A stretch of 34,318 nt of DNA. Source: a virus (Duplodnaviria > Heunggongvirae > Uroviricota > Caudoviricetes). Of the stretch, positions 3,463-20,002 are shown piece by piece (the stretch's first letter is position 1; the number at the start of each line of letters is the position of its first letter). The stretch lies in IMG/VR virus record IMGVR_UViG_2534681675_000028; one strand, given 5' to 3'. Made by a program: the position numbers and the translations under genes. The notes under the pieces were generated by a model. It saw nothing but the letters and a program-made list of their open reading frames with translations, was not told the origin of the DNA and ran no database searches.

Positions 3463-5946
3463 TTAAAAATCAGCCTGACTCGGGATCAGTTTTTGTATTG
3501 TAGCTGTAACGTATTTTGCCTGGTGACGGGCGTCATCCAGTGCATTGTGGTGCACGCCTTCGAATGGAATAACGGTTCTGGCATCAAAGTCGATTGTTTT
3601 TCCCAGCTCAACGATTGTGCGTACATCGCGATCGTTGTGGTAGCGCCACGGGCAGGGGATGTCCAGACGTTCGTATGAGGTGCGCAAAATTGCGTTATCG
3701 AAAGTTGCACCATTACCCCATACCTGAACGAATTTTTCATCTGAGTATTCGTTGATGAACTCCCGAAACCGCGAAAGGGCATCCTTCAGTTTTACCTGGT
3801 CTGTTAAAATGGCAGCTCTGGCTTCACTGGACTGCTTCAGCCACCATTCGATGGTTCCACCGTCAGGAACAGCCCCTGTATTCATTGCGTCAGTCAGACT
3901 GATAACGATATAAAATACTGGCCCGATTTCCCCTGTTTGTGGGTCGAAGAAAACCGCACCAATAACCACGATGGGCGCATTGGTGTTGGTTCCCATTGTT
4001 TCAAGGTCGATCATCAGGTGGTACCACACTCTGCTGGTGGATGTGATAACGTGATGACCGTTCACCGCAATTAAGGGATCTGCCGTCTCGCCAGTTTCAT
4101 TATCGCTGGCGTGGTCCTGAGCGCTGCCAGCATTCTCCTTGTGTGGATGTTCAGCGCCTTCCATTTCCTCCGGATCATTTTCCTGAACTTCAACCTGATT
4201 CTCTTCATCGAATGTTTCCTGGTATGTTGCGTCGCCCATCACCGCACCACAATCAGGGCAGTTGCCGCCGCCGGTCTGACCGCAGGCGGTGCAGACTTTT
4301 TCCGCTTCCTGTTGCGCTACTGGCTCAGGTTGTTTCGTTTCTGGCTCGTTTTGTAACGCATTTGGGCTGTTTTGTTCCGCGTTCTGGTCGTTCTGTTCCG
4401 TTTCTTGCTGGTTCTGATTCACAGAATCGCGGGTTTCAATCCCCTTCACCCATTTCGGATCATTCGGGTCGCTAATCCCTGCAACAAATTCACTACGTGA
4501 TACAGCAAGCAACTTATCGGCGTCAGGCTGGCTGATATTGGCTGCCTGCATAATTTTGTTTACTTCGTCAGCGGTAACTTTTACCGGCTCCGGTTGTGCG
4601 ATCGTGTCAGATGCACCAGTATTTTGTTGTGAACCTGAGTATGTACCGTTTTTGCGGGCAAAATATTCTTCTTTCGTGATTTCAGTAGCCCCTGCAGCCA
4701 GCGCCTTATTCAGACCAGAAAGTTTGTTTGCACGACCGTATTTTTCGCCATCCTTGTCGGTGAAGAGGAAGTAGAACGGCCCCTCACGCTCTACAGATGA
4801 TTCGACTTCCACTTTGCATTCGGTTTTTTCGTTGTCGTGAATTGCCGTTTCCACTGCGTCAGTTTCTGGTACTGGCGACGAGAGAGTATTAGCTGTGCCC
4901 TGATTTGTTCCTTCGTCATCTTCAAACACGCCCTTTGTAGTCAGGTATTCAGTGATGTATTTGTTCAGTGCCACGGGATCTTTGTGAATGTCGATCGGGC
5001 GTTCACGGACAAGGCCAAAAATAGTCTGGCGGCTGTAGCGAAGCGCATCAGGTTGTTTGCGCATTGATGCGGAGATGCGCTTCCAGTCTTCGCGATCTCT
5101 GGCGATAACTTCATTTTTAGCCCAGCGAAGGATGCTGCCGTCAATGTTTCCGGCATCCGCATCACCAGGCCAGAGATAGTAGGCCAGCTCCCTGTCCAGG
5201 GTTTTCCATGTCTGCTTGTATTCGCGATGAATGGCGGCAGTTACAGGAGGGATTTTTTCTGCTGGGTTTTCAGTGTGCTGTCGGTTGGCTTTGGCGCGGG
5301 CAAGATCAACAACAGACGTGTATTTTCCAGTCTCTTTGCGCTCTGCGTCCTGCCGTTTTTTCCAGTTACGTAATTCAACCTGAATTTCGGGCCATTTGGT
5401 ACCCGGCTTACATTTGTGTTTAACCCATCCGATAGCGAACAGTTTGCGTTCCGGATACATAGCGTTAATTTCAGGCGTTTTCATCAGTGCTTCAACGATA
5501 TGCCCGTCAAAGGTAGCCACGTCTTCTTGCAGTAATTCCTGCGCGTCAATCGCCATATCAACGGTGATGTTTTCACATGTACCGAACTTAACCAGGACCG
5601 CGTTCTGTACTTCAAGGGACAGCTTGTCAAAATTGACGTTAATAGGATCGGATTCTGGTTCGACCGGAATAAAGGAAGCGGATTCCTCATCCCAGTGGTT
5701 TTCCTGCATATATTCGGTATCCCAGGAGTCGATAGCAGGGCGGGGCATGCCGGGTTTATCTTCGCAGACAAGAAATTTATAAGCGCAGTCCTGAGCAGCA
5801 GGATATTGCTCCAGGAATTGCCAGGTAAATTTGGCACGGGCGCGGCGTTCATCACCGGCTTCAATGGCAGTGGCTACAGCAACTGCGCCCTCTTCTTTTA
5901 TTGCCTGTTCGTCCGGAATGGCGGCGCAAATAAAGACTTTACTCAT
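3463..5946 (-). CDS. Large prophage exonuclease: N-terminal region, acidic Q/E-rich linker with Cys4 zinc ribbon, C-terminal DnaQ-like DEDDh 3'-5' exonuclease domain
   Basis: 827-aa ORF; C-terminus has the Exo motifs MIDLETMG, WGNGATFDNAIL and HNALDDARHQAKY; CTACGQTGGGNCPDCG zinc ribbon. Confidence 0.7.
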   Translation of the reverse strand: MSKVFICAAIPDEQAIKEEGAVAVATAIEAGDERRARAKFTWQFLEQYPAAQDCAYKFLVCEDKPGMPRPAIDSWDTEYMQENHWDEESASFIPVEPESDPINVNFDKLSLEVQNAVLVKFGTCENITVDMAIDAQELLQEDVATFDGHIVEALMKTPEINAMYPERKLFAIGWVKHKCKPGTKWPEIQVELRNWKKRQDAERKETGKYTSVVDLARAKANRQHTENPAEKIPPVTAAIHREYKQTWKTLDRELAYYLWPGDADAGNIDGSILRWAKNEVIARDREDWKRISASMRKQPDALRYSRQTIFGLVRERPIDIHKDPVALNKYITEYLTTKGVFEDDEGTNQGTANTLSSPVPETDAVETAIHDNEKTECKVEVESSVEREGPFYFLFTDKDGEKYGRANKLSGLNKALAAGATEITKEEYFARKNGTYSGSQQNTGASDTIAQPEPVKVTADEVNKIMQAANISQPDADKLLAVSRSEFVAGISDPNDPKWVKGIETRDSVNQNQQETEQNDQNAEQNSPNALQNEPETKQPEPVAQQEAEKVCTACGQTGGGNCPDCGAVMGDATYQETFDEENQVEVQENDPEEMEGAEHPHKENAGSAQDHASDNETGETADPLIAVNGHHVITSTSRVWYHLMIDLETMGTNTNAPIVVIGAVFFDPQTGEIGPVFYIVISLTDAMNTGAVPDGGTIEWWLKQSSEARAAILTDQVKLKDALSRFREFINEYSDEKFVQVWGNGATFDNAILRTSYERLDIPCPWRYHNDRDVRTIVELGKTIDFDARTVIPFEGVHHNALDDARHQAKYVTATIQKLIPSQADF

Positions 5947-14912: not shown

Positions 14913-15123
14913 AATGGCTTTTGTGTGCATGTTAAATAAAGAATACATGGCATCATTTAATGATGTCATGTGTAACGAGCGAAAAGCCTTTTGAACGGTT
15001 TTCATAAGTTATATTGAAAGATAAAATTGCTGCGGGTGCTTGAGGCTATCTGCCTCAGGCATGAACACCAACGGCAGATAGATAAAAGCCCCACCCGACT
15101 ATAAATCGAAGTGAGGCCCCTAT

Positions 15124-15336
15124 ATGCTCGTCACATACAGATTGCCTCTTACGGACCGAAAGGTCAAGGAGAAGCAGGCTATGAAGCAGCAAAAGGCGAT
15201 GCTAATCGCCCTGATCGTCATCTGTTTAACCGTCATAGTGACGGCACTGGTAACGAGGAAAGACCTCTGCGAGGTACGAATCCGAACCGGCCAGACGGAG
15301 GTCGCTGTCTTCACAGCTTACGAACCTGAGGAGTAA
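15124..15336 (+). CDS. mok: mok-like reading frame (N-terminally extended, in frame with hok)
   Basis: ORF in the same frame as hok sharing its stop codon, the arrangement I recall for chromosomal mok/hok pairs. Confidence 0.5.
   Translation: MLVTYRLPLTDRKVKEKQAMKQQKAMLIALIVICLTVIVTALVTRKDLCEVRIRTGQTEVAVFTAYEPEE
15181..15336 (+). CDS. hok: Hok/Gef-family type I toxin (51 aa)
   Basis: MKQQKAMLIALIVICLTVIVTALVTRKDLCEVRIRTGQTEVAVFTAYEPEE closely resembles Hok (…[25 protein letters not shown]…); AGGAG Shine-Dalgarno. Confidence 0.8.
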   Translation: MKQQKAMLIALIVICLTVIVTALVTRKDLCEVRIRTGQTEVAVFTAYEPEE

Positions 15337-15403
15337 GAGACCTGGCGGGGAGAATTCCCTCGCCACCTCTGATGTGTCAGGCTTCCTCAACGCACCCGCA
15401 CTT

Positions 15404-15430
15404 AACCCGCTTCGGTGGGTTTTGTTTTTT
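15404..15430 (+). terminator. Rho-independent terminator after hok
   Basis: Hairpin AACCCGC-TTCG-GTGGGTT followed by TTTGTTTTTT. Confidence 0.6.
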
Positions 15431-15502
15431 CTGTGCATTCTGGTTTACAATTCGCACGCCAGCCTGAACAACTGGCACCTGCTGCGCCAGCAGAGACAAC
15501 CG

Positions 15503-15781
15503 ATGGCGCACGATACCAAATTACACAATTCTGATGATTCTGCCGTCTTTGCCAGCAGGCACGGGCTGCGTTCTCACGCATTCAAATATGACTGGTATCA
15601 GCACGATCCCTGTACTGAAGAACAGGCCGAATGGCTGATTCATAACTACCGCAGACGTGGGTATGAGTTTAAGAAAGCCCTCAGTCTCGATTATCGTCAC
15701 TGGATAATCTACGTCAGGCTCCCTTATTCCGAACGCCCGCCGCGTCCATCCCGCACATTCCAGCAACGGATCTGGAGGTAA
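15503..15781 (+). CDS. Hypothetical nin-region protein
   Basis: ORF 15374-15781 trimmed to the ATG at 15503, because the upstream part overlaps the hok terminator. Confidence 0.4.
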   Translation: MAHDTKLHNSDDSAVFASRHGLRSHAFKYDWYQHDPCTEEQAEWLIHNYRRRGYEFKKALSLDYRHWIIYVRLPYSERPPRPSRTFQQRIWR

Positions 15782-15782
15782 C

Positions 15783-16832
15783 GTGCGGGTATTACTTCGA
15801 CCTGTTCCGGTGCCGGAACTCGGGCTGGTGGTCCTTAAGCCGGGCCGTGAATCTATGCAGGTATTTCATAATCCCCGGGTACTGGTGGAGCCGGAACCGA
15901 AAAGCATGCGCGGTCTGCCGTCCGGAGCTGTTCCTGCCGTTCGCCAGGCGCTGGCGGAAGATAAATCATTACTGCCATTTTTCAGCGATGAGCGGGTGAT
16001 TCGTGCTGCTGGCGGCGCTGGTGCACTGTCTGACTGGCTGTTGCGTCATGTCAAATCCTGCCAGTGGCCTCATGGTGACTATCATCACAGTGAAACCGTC
16101 ATACATCGTTACGGTACCGGCGCGATGGTGTTGTGCTGGCACTGCGACAACCAGTTGCGTGACCAGACCTCCGAATCACTCGGGCAACTTGCTCATCAAA
16201 ACCTGTCGGCATGGATGATTGACGTCATACGCCACGCAATGAATGGCACACAAGAGCGGGAATTATCGCTGGCTGAATTGTACTGCTGGGCTGCTGTAAA
16301 TGATGTAGTGGATGCCATGACCGAAAATATGGCGCGTCGAATCCTGAAGCGTCCGGGTGAAAAAATCCGCTCAATATACCGCGAGAGCGACATCATACCG
16401 GGAGAACCGACAGCCACCAGCATACTGAAGCAGCGCACAAAAAATATTGCGCTACCACCTTACGCCCACCAGCAACAGAACCCACCACAGGAAAAGACGG
16501 TGGTCAGCATCGCCGTTGATCCGGAGTCTCCTGAATCTTTCATGAAGCGACCTAAACGTCGCCGTTGGGTAAATGAGAAATATACGCGCTGGGTGAAGAC
16601 TCAGCCGTGTGCGTGTTGTGGTCAACCAGCCGACGATCCCCATCACCTGATTGGTCATGGTCAGGGCGGAATGGGAACAAAGGCCCACGATATTTTTACA
16701 CTACCGCTGTGCCGGGAGCATCACAACGAACTTCATGCGGATCTGCTGGCGTTCGAAGAAAACCATGGTTCCCAGATTGATTTAATTTTTCGTTTTCTTG
16801 ATCACGCCTTTGCAACCGGCGTGCTTGGGTAA
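15783..16832 (+). CDS. DUF968-type prophage protein with C-terminal HNH-like Cys/His motif (YdfU-like by recollection)
   Basis: 349-aa ORF; GTG start with GGAGG Shine-Dalgarno; C-terminal CACCGQ…HHLIGHGQGGMGTKAHD…CREHHNELH. Confidence 0.6.
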   Translation: MRVLLRPVPVPELGLVVLKPGRESMQVFHNPRVLVEPEPKSMRGLPSGAVPAVRQALAEDKSLLPFFSDERVIRAAGGAGALSDWLLRHVKSCQWPHGDYHHSETVIHRYGTGAMVLCWHCDNQLRDQTSESLGQLAHQNLSAWMIDVIRHAMNGTQERELSLAELYCWAAVNDVVDAMTENMARRILKRPGEKIRSIYRESDIIPGEPTATSILKQRTKNIALPPYAHQQQNPPQEKTVVSIAVDPESPESFMKRPKRRRWVNEKYTRWVKTQPCACCGQPADDPHHLIGHGQGGMGTKAHDIFTLPLCREHHNELHADLLAFEENHGSQIDLIFRFLDHAFATGVLG

Positions 16833-16844
16833 AAGAGGTTACTG

Positions 16845-17216
16845 ATGCGTATAGAGTTTGTTTTGCCTTACCCGCCGACGGTGAACACCTACTGGCGACG
16901 TCATGGCAGCACATATTTTGTATCAAAAGCCGGTGAGCGTTATCGCCGTGATGTGGCGTTCATTGTTCGCCAGCAGCGGTTGAAATTAAACCTCTCCGGA
17001 AGGCTGGCGATAAAGATTATTGCAGAGCCACCGGATAAGCGCCGTCGTGACCTGGACAATATCCTGAAAGCACTGCTGGATGCGCTGACACATGCGGGGC
17101 TGCTTATAGACGACGACCAGTTTGATGAAATCAATATTGTGCATGGTCTGCCTGTTTGCGGTGGGCGACTGGGTGTGAATATATTCGTAATAAGAGGATG
17201 TAATGATGTTGCGTGA
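16845..17216 (+). CDS. rusA: Holliday junction resolvase RusA
   Basis: 123-aa ORF; YWRRHG…[22 protein letters not shown] matches RusA motifs as I recall them. Confidence 0.85.
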
Positions 17217-17577
17217 TATTCAGCTGGTTATGGAGCGGTGGGGAGCATGGGCAGCAAGTAATCATGAAGATGTAACATGGTCCTCGATAGCTGCTGGTTT
17301 TAAAGGATTAATCCCGACTAAAGTGAAATCACGTCCTCAGTGTTCTGATGATGACGCCATGATAATTTGTGGCTGTATGGCACGATTAAACAAGAATAAT
17401 CAGTATTTGCACGATTTGTTGGTGGATTATTACGTAGGTGGAATGACATTTATGGCTCTTGCACGTAAGCATAGATGTTCTGATGGGCTTATTGGTAAAA
17501 GACTTTATAAAGCTGAAGGTATTATTGAAGGAATGCTTATGGCTCTGAATGTCCGGTTAGATATGGATATGCGGTAG
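17203..17577 (+). CDS. Q: Late-gene antiterminator Q (phage 21/82-type, QuuD-like)
   Basis: 124-aa ORF; [34 protein letters not shown]…[16 protein letters not shown] matches my recollection of QuuD. Confidence 0.85.
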
Positions 17578-17670
17578 GGATATATAGTGACGAGGGTTAT
17601 GTTTTCCGTGTTTATAATTAATATGTTTATTTTTTGATGGTCATGAATTTTATGGAAGGTAAACAAAATG

Positions 17671-17699
17671 TTGCCAGGTGAATTGAAAATATTGATAAT
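17671..17699 (+). promoter_or_regulatory. Sigma70-type promoter (TTGCCA, 17-bp spacer, GATAAT) downstream of Q: candidate late promoter pR' or cargo promoter
   Basis: Direct reading: -35 at 17671-17676, -10 at 17694-17699; about 30 bp upstream of the next start codon. Confidence 0.45.
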
Positions 17700-17730
17700 C
17701 AATCATCATCATTAAATAAAAGGAGTGTTT

Positions 17731-18549
17731 ATGTGGATTGTGTTAGCACTGTCACTGTCAACTCTCAGTTGGCATAAGGTAGTGGCTTTTTCATTGTTGA
17801 CGGTGTCTGTTGTCCTGGCTGTGCTTAATGATATTATTGATTGGCCGGTGTTGTTTTTTGTTGCTACAATCGTTTTTTTTATTATTTTGAAGTTCAACTG
17901 GAAATATAACGCCTGGGCTAAATCCATATATGAAGCTGGCATAGTTTTATCAGCCATAGCATTATCTTTCCATTTATGGCCAGGGTTTCACAATCCTGTA
18001 GTGCTAAAGTCTGTCACTGTCGGACCTCAAAGCACTCCCTATACAATGTATTTTAATTTTGATAAAGCGCTGGTGCCATTTTTGTTAGTCCTGTGTACAG
18101 CTTCTTTGTTTAAAAAAGAAGTGAAATCAGAAGTGTCTTTGTGGAAATGGGGGGCTCTGTTGCTCTCTGTTCCTCTTATACTGTTTTTGGCTGTTTTTTT
18201 TGGTGGGTTAAAGCCAGAGATTCATTTTCCAGAGTGGTTGCCAGAGTTTATATTGGCTAATTTGTTTTTTGTGTCTCTGGCAGAGGAGTCATTATTTAGA
18301 GGGTATATTCAATCACGGCTATCAGAAGTGACGTCTCCATTGGTTGCGTTAATTGTGGCGTCTTTGTTGTTTGGTTTTTATCACTATTCAGGTGGTGCTT
18401 TACTTGTATTATTTGCCACGTTATCTGGTGTTGTGTATGGATTGTCATGGATGTGGAGTGGGTGCTTGTGGGTGGCAACCCTTTTCCATTTTGGTCTGAA
18501 TCTGTGTCACTTGTTATTCTTTACCTATCCATTCTTAAAACATAATTGA
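17731..18549 (+). CDS. CPBP-family (CAAX protease / Abi, PF02517-type) intramembrane metalloprotease
   Basis: 272-aa polytopic ORF with AGGAG Shine-Dalgarno; conserved motifs EExxxR (AEESLFRGY), FxxxH (FGFYHY) and HxxxN (HFGLNLCH). Confidence 0.75.
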   Translation: MWIVLALSLSTLSWHKVVAFSLLTVSVVLAVLNDIIDWPVLFFVATIVFFIILKFNWKYNAWAKSIYEAGIVLSAIALSFHLWPGFHNPVVLKSVTVGPQSTPYTMYFNFDKALVPFLLVLCTASLFKKEVKSEVSLWKWGALLLSVPLILFLAVFFGGLKPEIHFPEWLPEFILANLFFVSLAEESLFRGYIQSRLSEVTSPLVALIVASLLFGFYHYSGGALLVLFATLSGVVYGLSWMWSGCLWVATLFHFGLNLCHLLFFTYPFLKHN

Positions 18550-18688
18550 TTTTTTTCTATGGCTTTAAATTTATAACACTGAAAAATAGCAGTATGTGAC
18601 ATTTGCATGAAAAATATGCACGGCAAAGCATTTACGTACGTAAAAAATCATGTATGCTTTTAAGAGTGGTTATTTCACCGCATAGCCT

Positions 18689-18714
18689 GAACCCGCCTCT
18701 GAGCGGGTTTTTTG
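18689..18714 (+). terminator. Rho-independent terminator after the CPBP gene
   Basis: ACCCGC-CTCTGA-GCGGGT followed by TTTTTTG. Confidence 0.65.
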
Positions 18715-18836
18715 TGCCCGCAAAGTAGCGCAGTGCGTTAAATGTGCTGGTAGTTATTAATACTGGTCTTTCTGCTTGCTGGCTTTTTAGACAAGAGTTA
18801 TTGGTATGTCACGTTAACCAGAAAAGGGAAAAAGAC

Positions 18837-19034
18837 ATGCTAAAACAGCAGGATATGACCGAAACCGCCAGAGTGGTGTTTAATGAATTAAGCGTCACCG
18901 AACCGGCGACCGTCGGGGAGATTGCGCAGAATACTTACCTTTCACGCGAGCGCTGCCAGTTAATACTGACTCAGCTTGTTATGGCGGGTCTGGCAGATTA
19001 TCAGTTCGGTTGTTACAGACGCCTTCCGCAGTGA
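18837..19034 (+). CDS. Small hypothetical protein, possibly winged-helix DNA-binding
   Basis: ORF 18744-19034 trimmed to the internal ATG (MLKQQDMTET…) preceded by AAGGGAA. Confidence 0.4.
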   Translation: MLKQQDMTETARVVFNELSVTEPATVGEIAQNTYLSRERCQLILTQLVMAGLADYQFGCYRRLPQ

Positions 19035-19184: not shown

Positions 19185-19734
19185 ATGGCTAATACTGTAA
19201 AAATATCCAGCTGCGAGTTAATCAACGCTGATTTCCTGGAATTTATCCAGACCTTACCGGAAAACTCTGTCGATCTGATAGTCACAGACCCGCCATACTT
19301 TAAAGTGAAGCCCGAGGGCTGGGATAACCAGTGGAAGGGCGACGATGATTACCTGAAATGGCTGGATCAGTGTCTGGCGCAGTTCTGGTGGGTATTAAAA
19401 CCCGCCGGAAGTCTTTACCTGTTCTGTGGTCATCGCCTGGCATCTGATATCGAAATCATGATGCGTGAGCGCTTTAATGTGCTGAACCACATTATCTGGG
19501 CGAAGCCGTCCGGGCGCTGGAACGGGTGCAACAAGGAAAGCCTGCGGGCGTATTTCCCGGCAACAGAGCGCATTCTGTTTGCGTCCGGGAGATTTGGTTG
19601 CCGACTTTTTCATGGGGTCAGGCTCCATAATAAAAGCAGCGCTGGCACTTGGGGGCATGGCGTTAAGCGTTGAACTTGAGTCTGAACGTTTTGAGCATAC
19701 TGCGGGTGAAATAGTTACGTTGGCAGATAATTAA
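19185..19734 (+). pseudogene. DNA N6-adenine (beta-class) methyltransferase with an apparent frameshift near 19585
   Basis: N-terminal frame has DPPY (motif IV); the +1 frame downstream reads RPGDLVADFFMGSGSIIKAALALGG (motif I, FxGxG); the two frames do not join without an indel. Confidence 0.6.
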
Positions 19735-19848: not shown

Positions 19849-19924
<76 letters not shown>

Positions 19925-19927
19925 TAT

Positions 19928-20002
<75 letters not shown>

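Follow-up and report, generated by a model that had tools for sequence, protein, structure and literature searches.

What is a gene for an intramembrane protease doing directly behind the antiterminator gene Q of a lambdoid prophage, and from which promoter is it read? The question is posed by a stretch of viral DNA of 34,318 nucleotides (nt), IMG/VR record IMGVR_UViG_2534681675_000028, called the window below, which is a lambdoid prophage adjoining yccA. A first-pass annotation had reported, as the first gene after Q, a protease of the CPBP (CAAX/Abi) family with intact catalytic motifs, flanked by a sigma-70 promoter and a terminator, and had assigned it to the position of PR' and late cargo that stx occupies in Shiga toxin phages. 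The nature of the protein and its place next to Q were confirmed, the late position was not: the element that we take to be PR' lies downstream of the protease gene. The best overall explanation, which we hold with modest confidence, is that a lambdoid prophage carries the gene as cargo between Q and PR', that it is expressed in the lysogen, and that its product is a catalytically competent glutamic protease of the CPBP family in the inner membrane. The elements concerned are the following.

17203 to 17577, plus strand: Q antiterminator of the QuuD/Q933 family, 124 amino acids (aa); PF06530, E=2.8e-51.
17578 to 17730, plus strand: Q-CPBP intergenic region, 153 nt; found only with the CPBP gene, no terminator.
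17671 to 17699, plus strand: predicted sigma-70 promoter of the CPBP gene, TTGCCA-17-GATAAT; 10 of 12 consensus positions, expected start near 17706.
17731 to 18549, plus strand: CPBP (Rce1-like) intramembrane glutamic protease gene, 272 aa; about 37% G+C.
18631 to 18658, plus strand: presumed late promoter PR' of the window's Q family, TTTACG-16-TATGCT; start near 18665.
18659 to 18713, plus strand: PR' leader and intrinsic terminator; hairpin 18690-18709, T-run to 18713.

The Q product shares 83% identity with QuuD, from the K-12 prophage DLP12, and has a distant relative in the Q21 of structures 6p18 and 6jnx, and the CPBP gene is indeed the first gene 3' of it. The CPBP reading frame is open from 17725 to 18549; its likeliest start is the ATG at 17731, with a strong ribosome-binding site, AGGAG, 5 nt ahead. 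The product matches the Rce1-like Pfam family PF02517 (E=5.5e-19, 68.7 bits for a gathering cut-off of 22.4), and it scores under the threshold of every specific NCBIfam CPBP subfamily (myxosortases, ABC-permease fusion), so that it is a member of none of those. The three motifs reported by the first-pass annotation are complete, and their defining residues are invariant in 32 homologues; the full-length alignment comprises 31 homologues that share 45-85% identity. EExxxR reads EESLFR (E185-E186-S-L-F-R190, with E185, E186 and R190 invariant), FxxxH reads FGFYH (F214-G-F-Y-H218, with F214 and H218 invariant), and HxxxN/D reads HFGLN (H253-F-G-L-N257, with H253 and N257 invariant). The N-terminal half adds a family-specific invariant set, H81, G85, N88, S101, N109, D111 and K112. 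No solved structure was found when searching by sequence. An AlphaFold2 model built from the homologue alignment is confident (pLDDT 95.4, pTM 0.91); it has a predicted membrane fold of the Rce1 type, and among PDB structures only the two solved CPBP proteins, SpdC and MmRce1, resemble it clearly. We conclude that this is a genuine CPBP-type membrane protease, and a probably active one.

Its relatives of known structure or function differ from it. MmRce1 (PDB 4cad, PF02517) is only about 18% identical and differs from the window family, whose N-terminal half has invariant HLxPGFHN and NFDKALVPF boxes; moreover, bacteria are not known to have a CAAX-prenylated substrate. Other relatives are SpdC/LyrA of Staphylococcus aureus (PDB 6u0o) and the Gram-positive proteins MroQ, LnsB and Abx1. 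SpdC is not known to have catalytic activity and works as a partner of SagB and WalK; the phage protein keeps every catalytic residue and has no linked partner gene.

Where, then, is PR'? Downstream of the CPBP gene, the -35 hexamer TTTACG (18631-18636) lies within a palindrome, TTTACGTACGTAAA, and is separated by a 16-nt spacer from the -10 hexamer TATGCT (18653-18658), the whole element reading TTTACGTACGTAAAAAATCATG-TATGCT in the window. The leader that follows holds a conserved GTTAAGAGTGGTTA box, a conserved leader sequence TTAAGAGTGGTTATTTC, and a hairpin, AACCCGC-CTCTGA-GCGGGTT (18690-18709), followed by six T. The leader RNA folds with -20.4 kcal/mol (z=-2.75), and the hairpin is kept in all cassettes compared. 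A terminator had been annotated after the CPBP gene, and there is a strong hairpin with a T-run at 18690-18713. It belongs nevertheless to the PR' leader, as the conserved promoter at 18631-18658 stands between the stop codon and the hairpin, and no separate terminator was found between the CPBP stop (18549) and PR' (18631).

The cassette of promoter, leader and hairpin goes with the Q family. It is present in DLP12, CFT073 and ev207, as well as in all CPBP lineages from 100% down to 59% aa identity. In DLP12 and the CFT073 prophage it is found about 200 nt 5' of essD, on the far side of the porin gene nmpC/ompC, which points the other way; in the active phage ev207 it is 219 nt 5' of the holin gene S, again past a porin gene; and in other QuuD-type prophages it precedes winged-helix-turn-helix (wHTH) and methylase genes. 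Among complete E. coli genomes, the cassette was found in 3565 and the Q family in 3926; among phage records the figures were 363 and 401, with the same breakdown by organism. Other Q types (lambda-like Q of 273 aa, DUF1133) have different promoter-terminator cassettes, all joining a common downstream sequence from about 18727-18759.

Comparison with other phages points the same way. In the 933W/H-19B-type Stx1a and Stx2a phages there is a homologue of the cassette, with 78% identity across 85 nt, that overlaps the Q stop codon and reads TTTACGATCGTAAA...TATCAT...GATAAGAGTGGTTAC...hairpin. With a start 6-8 nt past TATCAT, the distance to the T-run of the terminator downstream, tR', would be exactly 258 nt. 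This predicted distance is the published size of the PR'-tR' transcript, the StxS precursor, which was placed directly 3' of Q and correlated with Q phylogeny (Sy et al., PMC7547250). Phage 21, as its genome is annotated for its own Q, has the same architecture as the cassette: a -35, a Q-binding element in the spacer, a -10, a start, a sigma-dependent pause element, and a terminator whose end is near +50. We therefore read 18631-18713, on grounds of homology and architecture, as the presumed PR'-leader-terminator of the window phage. Its layout is that of the short PR'-tR' transcripts (6S RNA of lambda, StxS of Stx phages, IsrK of Gifsy-1), and over its promoter and first hairpin it shows homology to the beginning of the StxS region. 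In contrast to the 258-nt transcript of 933W-type phages, which runs to a second terminator, the window leader is only about 50 nt long and ends at the first hairpin.

Several other identifications were considered for the cassette and discarded. An identity with an Rfam family was not retained, since the full-length match to isrK (21.9 bits, gathering score 50) and the one to P9, on the opposite strand, are both weak and below threshold; the likeness was kept as an analogy. That TTTACG...TATGCT might itself be transcribed, as an IsrK-like 5' hairpin, was rejected because this hairpin is not conserved, whereas the TATnnT hexamer and the 16-nt spacing are. The DLP12 lysis-operon reporter could not serve to define PR', as its mapped forward primer puts its +1 about 320 nt upstream of the cassette. 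The prophage small RNA HnrS (PMC13502914) is found in other Sakai prophages and is unrelated.

With PR' so placed, the CPBP gene would occupy the gap that separates Q from PR', upstream of the point at which RNA polymerase is engaged by Q and outside the Q-dependent stx slot, and its expression should therefore not depend on Q. The gene has several of the traits looked for in a moron. It is inserted between elements that are adjacent in relatives: in 933W-type phages Q overlaps or adjoins the PR' -35 palindrome, whereas in the window the two are 1,053 nt apart, with the CPBP gene between them. Its composition is foreign: G+C is 34-40% over 17400-18750, compared with about 50-58% on the upstream side (15000-17250) and about 42-56% past position 18750; the low G+C extends to the 3' half of Q. 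One such trait is absent: it has no terminator of its own, the first hairpin past it being that of the PR' leader. Related phages have in this gap the nmpC/lc porin gene, a lipocalin gene, a 148-aa open reading frame (ORF), or a DUF262 gene with a HEPN-like nuclease and a cytosine methylase (Dcm) gene. The last set was seen in L006 1-2857 (NZ_OZ547155.1), where DUF262, MAE_28990-family HEPN-like nuclease and DNA cytosine methyltransferase genes stand directly upstream of a cassette variant; that this is the same Q-to-PR' gap is assumed, no Q gene being visible in the stretch examined. The CPBP gene thus resembles the cargo of the Q-to-lysis region of other lambdoid phages (lc/nmpC of PA-2 and DLP12, bor, stx) in its foreign composition and in being unrelated to phage growth. 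With lc/nmpC it also shares the slot between Q and a conserved PR' cassette, but lc/nmpC is on the opposite strand with terminators of its own, whereas the CPBP gene is co-oriented with Q and borrows the hairpin of the PR' leader. From stx it differs in lying upstream of PR', stx being downstream of PR'/tR' and Q-dependent.

Both positions occur side by side in Stx1d prophages. There, Q is followed by an 85%-identical CPBP gene, a decayed cassette whose hairpin is broken, a StxS-like leader with a second terminator, and then stx1dAB, an arrangement seen in four complete genomes (L029 4479-7833, GCA_012267765.1; also H229-H232). CPBP coming before the cassette and stx beyond it, the two genes are in different regulatory positions within one phage. 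A location downstream of PR'/qut and a terminator, as for Q-dependent late cargo, was found for one distant relative only, L074 2905-4807 (IMGVR_UViG_2880355930_000006), where the order is lambda-type Q (PF03589), PR'-like promoter, strong terminator (3798-3823) and 55%-identical CPBP gene; the late, stx-like position proposed by the first-pass annotation does hold for that copy. The position of the gene relative to PR' is thus not conserved, which fits a gene that would not rely on Q.

If PR' is not its promoter, what transcribes the CPBP gene? The 153-nt intergenic region was found by blastn in 572 complete E. coli genomes, and the CPBP gene was present in all rows of a 40-row spread sample of these; homology of the window to other QuuD-type prophages ends near the Q stop codon. 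The predicted promoter reported by the first-pass annotation is present within this region, at 17671-17699, and it recurs: 38 of 41 IMG/VR copies have TTGCCT, TTGCCA or TTGTCA-17-GATAAT, ending 31 nt from the ATG. The CPBP lineages at 63% and 59% identity have unrelated intergenic sequences, each with promoter-like matches of its own. A match as good as TTGCCA-17-GATAAT also arose in 72 of 2000 dinucleotide shuffles of the region (3.6%), so the shuffle test makes the promoter suggestive, not compelling.

This element could alternatively be the Q-dependent PR' itself, with its qut site. CPBP would then be the first late gene, the hairpin at 18690-18713 would be overridden by Q, and high expression would come only after induction, as for stx. 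The element is directly 3' of Q, as is PR' in lambda, phage 21 and 933W; past the predicted transcription start there is a -10-like CATCAT; in L074 a CPBP gene does come after the PR'-like promoter and terminator of a Q; and the spacer repeats ATTGAAAA/ATTGATAA recall the Q21-binding element ATTGAGCA/AATGAGCA at the same relative position. The resemblance of these ATTGA repeats to the phage 21 element is faint, and it leaves Q action at the CPBP promoter a small probability. Against such a PR' stand the facts that the intergenic sequence exists only with CPBP, while Q proteins 83-84% identical to that of the window do without it in DLP12 and in the active phage ev207; that a different element, conserved with the window's Q family and homologous to the 933W-type PR', lies downstream of CPBP; and that the 63% and 59% lineages have kept the downstream cassette but not the intergenic region. 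We consider a Q-dependent promoter at this place highly improbable. As an observation apart, the ATTG(A) direct repeats are found inside the promoter-like element (ATTGAAAAtATTGATAA, window 17682-17698) and recur in diverged lineages, in the Q-CPBP intergenic regions of L028 and L026.

We propose instead that in the lysogen CPBP would be transcribed from its own sigma-70-type promoter at 17671-17699. After induction, read-through of the early operon via Q into CPBP would be expected, because no terminator separates the two genes (no terminator-like site was found within the intergenic region). Both transcripts would end at the first hairpin of the PR' leader, 18690-18713, and Q would load onto RNA polymerase only at PR', downstream of the gene.

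The read-through could also be the whole of its expression, and this is the main rival: CPBP would have no meaningful promoter of its own, would be transcribed together with Q as the final gene of the delayed-early operon, and would act in the lytic cycle, for instance on a host envelope protein or on lysis timing. Its orientation would suit this, as CPBP shares its strand with DUF968-RusA-Q, no terminator separates it from Q, and it is always co-oriented with Q, other cargo of the slot being mostly on the opposite strand; the Q-CPBP order is also found in 41 of 44 IMG/VR loci, across CPBP divergence down to 59%, and in these 41 the cassette follows in the same order. A role confined to the lytic cycle fits less well with a near-consensus promoter whose distance from the ATG is constant in 38 of 41 copies, and with promoter-like matches proper to the diverged lineages. 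Moreover, the chromosomal homologues are stand-alone host genes, and CPBP has stayed intact in decayed prophages that have lost or rearranged their lytic genes, such as Sp4 of O157:H7 Sakai, which argues for a benefit in the lysogen. We hold such a lytic role to be unlikely.

The state of the gene in E. coli at large bears on the same question. The unit of Q, intergenic region and CPBP was found in 572-613 of 5,426 complete genomes, among them O157:H7, O55:H7, O103:H2, O111 and O145. The gene is labelled "CPBP family intramembrane glutamic endopeptidase" in RefSeq and corresponds to phrog_13291 (function unknown) in PHROGs; the Sakai copy is ECs1085 of prophage Sp4, annotated "phage CAAX amino terminal protease family protein". 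In the rearranged and decayed Sp4 it is intact, and in the Sp4 copy of O157:H7 strain 86-24 the downstream neighbour is frameshifted. Intact genes make up 37 of the 41 IMG/VR copies and represent 17 distinct alleles, all with their motifs. Between the window allele and the O157 allele, the ratio of non-synonymous to synonymous substitution rates (dN/dS) is 0.13-0.15. The CPBP gene is under purifying selection.

These figures are at odds with a silent hitch-hiker that would have no current function and be retained only by linkage to Q. Such a passenger could be suspected from the AT-rich foreign DNA, the lack of a match to known defence families, the absence from isolated phages, and a few disrupted copies (3-4 of the 41 in IMG/VR); the broken copies include L014 1713-3464 (NZ_CM149872.1), where an insertion sequence, IS1, lies between Q and a frameshifted CPBP. 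Yet the low dN/dS, the 17 distinct intact alleles with catalytic motifs in all of them, and the retention of family-wide invariant residues at only about 50% identity to chromosomal homologues all speak against it, and we consider it improbable.

Those chromosomal homologues, at about 50% identity, are single-copy genes across the Enterobacterales, in a family of about 275 aa. They follow modF in Hafnia and Providencia, are part of an insertion sequence-rich island in Salmonella, and have other contexts in Dickeya, Pantoea, Enterobacter and one metagenome contig; no conserved partner gene was found beside those examined. In the E. coli genomes examined, the family is represented only in prophages. 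In a neighbour-joining tree, which carries no support values, the prophage alleles linked to Q group as a single clade within the chromosomal family, and because of this nesting the phage gene looks like a captured host gene.

What might it do for the lysogen? The facts point to a function benefiting its envelope, since the catalytic residues are kept and purifying selection acts even in decayed prophages, and since the promoter-like element is at a fixed distance from the ATG and the slot mates include porin, lipocalin and defence-like genes. The most likely role, proposed with low certainty by analogy with CPBP/Abi bacteriocin immunity and with the envelope and defence cargo of the same slot, is a lysogenic conversion of the envelope, in which the protease would cleave a membrane-embedded peptide or protein and thereby protect the lysogen. 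Protection might for example consist of immunity to a membrane-targeting peptide toxin, or of exclusion of an incoming phage; as a specific role, either is a tentative suggestion. According to Kjos et al. in 2010, the Abi/CPBP immunity proteins of lactic acid bacteria (PlnI, PlnLR, SkkI) reportedly need their conserved motifs to confer immunity. They belong to the same family as the window protein and are a precedent for a protective role, but their genes are inside bacteriocin operons, whereas the window gene is on a prophage of a Gram-negative host.

A number of points weigh against the lysogen-expressed, protective protease proposed here, beside the faint likeness of the promoter spacer to the phage 21 element. 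Intact motifs alone are no proof of protease activity, because some CPBP proteins, such as SpdC and LnsB, work without proteolysis. The promoter match is only moderately unusual; no expression or transcript data for the gene, and no papers on it or on ECs1085, were found in the papers searched; and H-NS silencing in the lysogen is possible, as the gene is AT-rich. The gene was absent, by megablast and tblastn, from 50,697 sequenced phage records, so that every known copy belongs to a prophage, in some cases a decayed one. Neither in phages nor beside chromosomal homologues was a substrate or partner gene found linked to CPBP. The first-pass annotation linked CPBP proteins to bacteriocin immunity and abortive infection; no bacteriocin structural or export gene was seen in the prophage annotation of the near-identical locus L001 or beside chromosomal homologues, and a search of the PADLOC-DB 2.0 profiles with the CPBP protein returned zero families at E<=0.1.

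In its boldest form, which we put forward as speculative, the proposal is that CPBP would be a new kind of lysogen-protecting determinant in Gram-negative bacteria, disabling by intramembrane proteolysis either a membrane-inserting peptide toxin (a microcin or colicin domain) or an inner-membrane component needed by incoming phages. Were this true, about 10% of E. coli, including major enterohaemorrhagic lineages, would have an unrecognised immunity or exclusion function, and a protease-based mechanism would be added to prophage-encoded host defence in enterobacteria. The gene is in any case present in roughly a tenth of complete E. coli genomes, among them O157:H7, O55:H7, O103, O111 and O145 strains, and in the Stx1d prophages. 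It is already annotated in databases, and both halves of its description, CPBP protease and Q-to-lysis region, are of a known kind of cargo. The practical correction is one of architecture: in QuuD-type prophages the late promoter is to be placed past the cargo gap, and genes found "first after Q" there are to be viewed as lysogen or early genes, not as stx-like late genes.

The prophage around these elements has the gene order DUF968-RusA-Q-CPBP-small wHTH gene-(truncated) DNA methylase-tRNAs-TerB-holins-endolysin-terminase. Two more features follow the cassette.

18727 to 19034, plus strand: downstream sequence common to prophages with other Q types, with the first late-side gene; 2827 genomes, matches beginning at 18727-18759.
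18837 to 19034, plus strand: 65-aa winged-helix-like protein, first gene past the PR' cassette; phrog_331, weak TrmB match.

The common sequence follows lambda-type or DUF1133-type Q cassettes in L003-L005. The gene at 18837-19034, with the flanking methylase region, is conserved in over 2,800 E. coli genomes, where it follows Q genes of three or more types, and it is frameshifted in O157:H7. At the same junction, tandem late-leader modules were seen (L026 5919-6330, L029 5894-6400), in which the TTTACG cassette and first hairpin are followed by a StxS-like stretch ending in a GCCAGC...GCTGGC-T7 terminator; they suggest repeated recombination at this place. The DNA methyltransferase gene (PF01555) at 19185-19734 is truncated or frameshifted, with ORFs of 162 aa and 51 aa against about 350 aa in related prophages, and RefSeq marks a near-identical copy as incomplete. 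Between this remnant and the lysis region are two tRNA genes (19849-19921 and 19928-19999), Thr and Gly according to the annotation of a near-identical locus; many related prophages have Ile and Arg tRNAs at the same place. Finally, at 2205-2218, near the integrase end of the prophage, there is a palindrome, TTTACGATCGTAAA, identical to the -35 palindrome of the 933W-type PR'.

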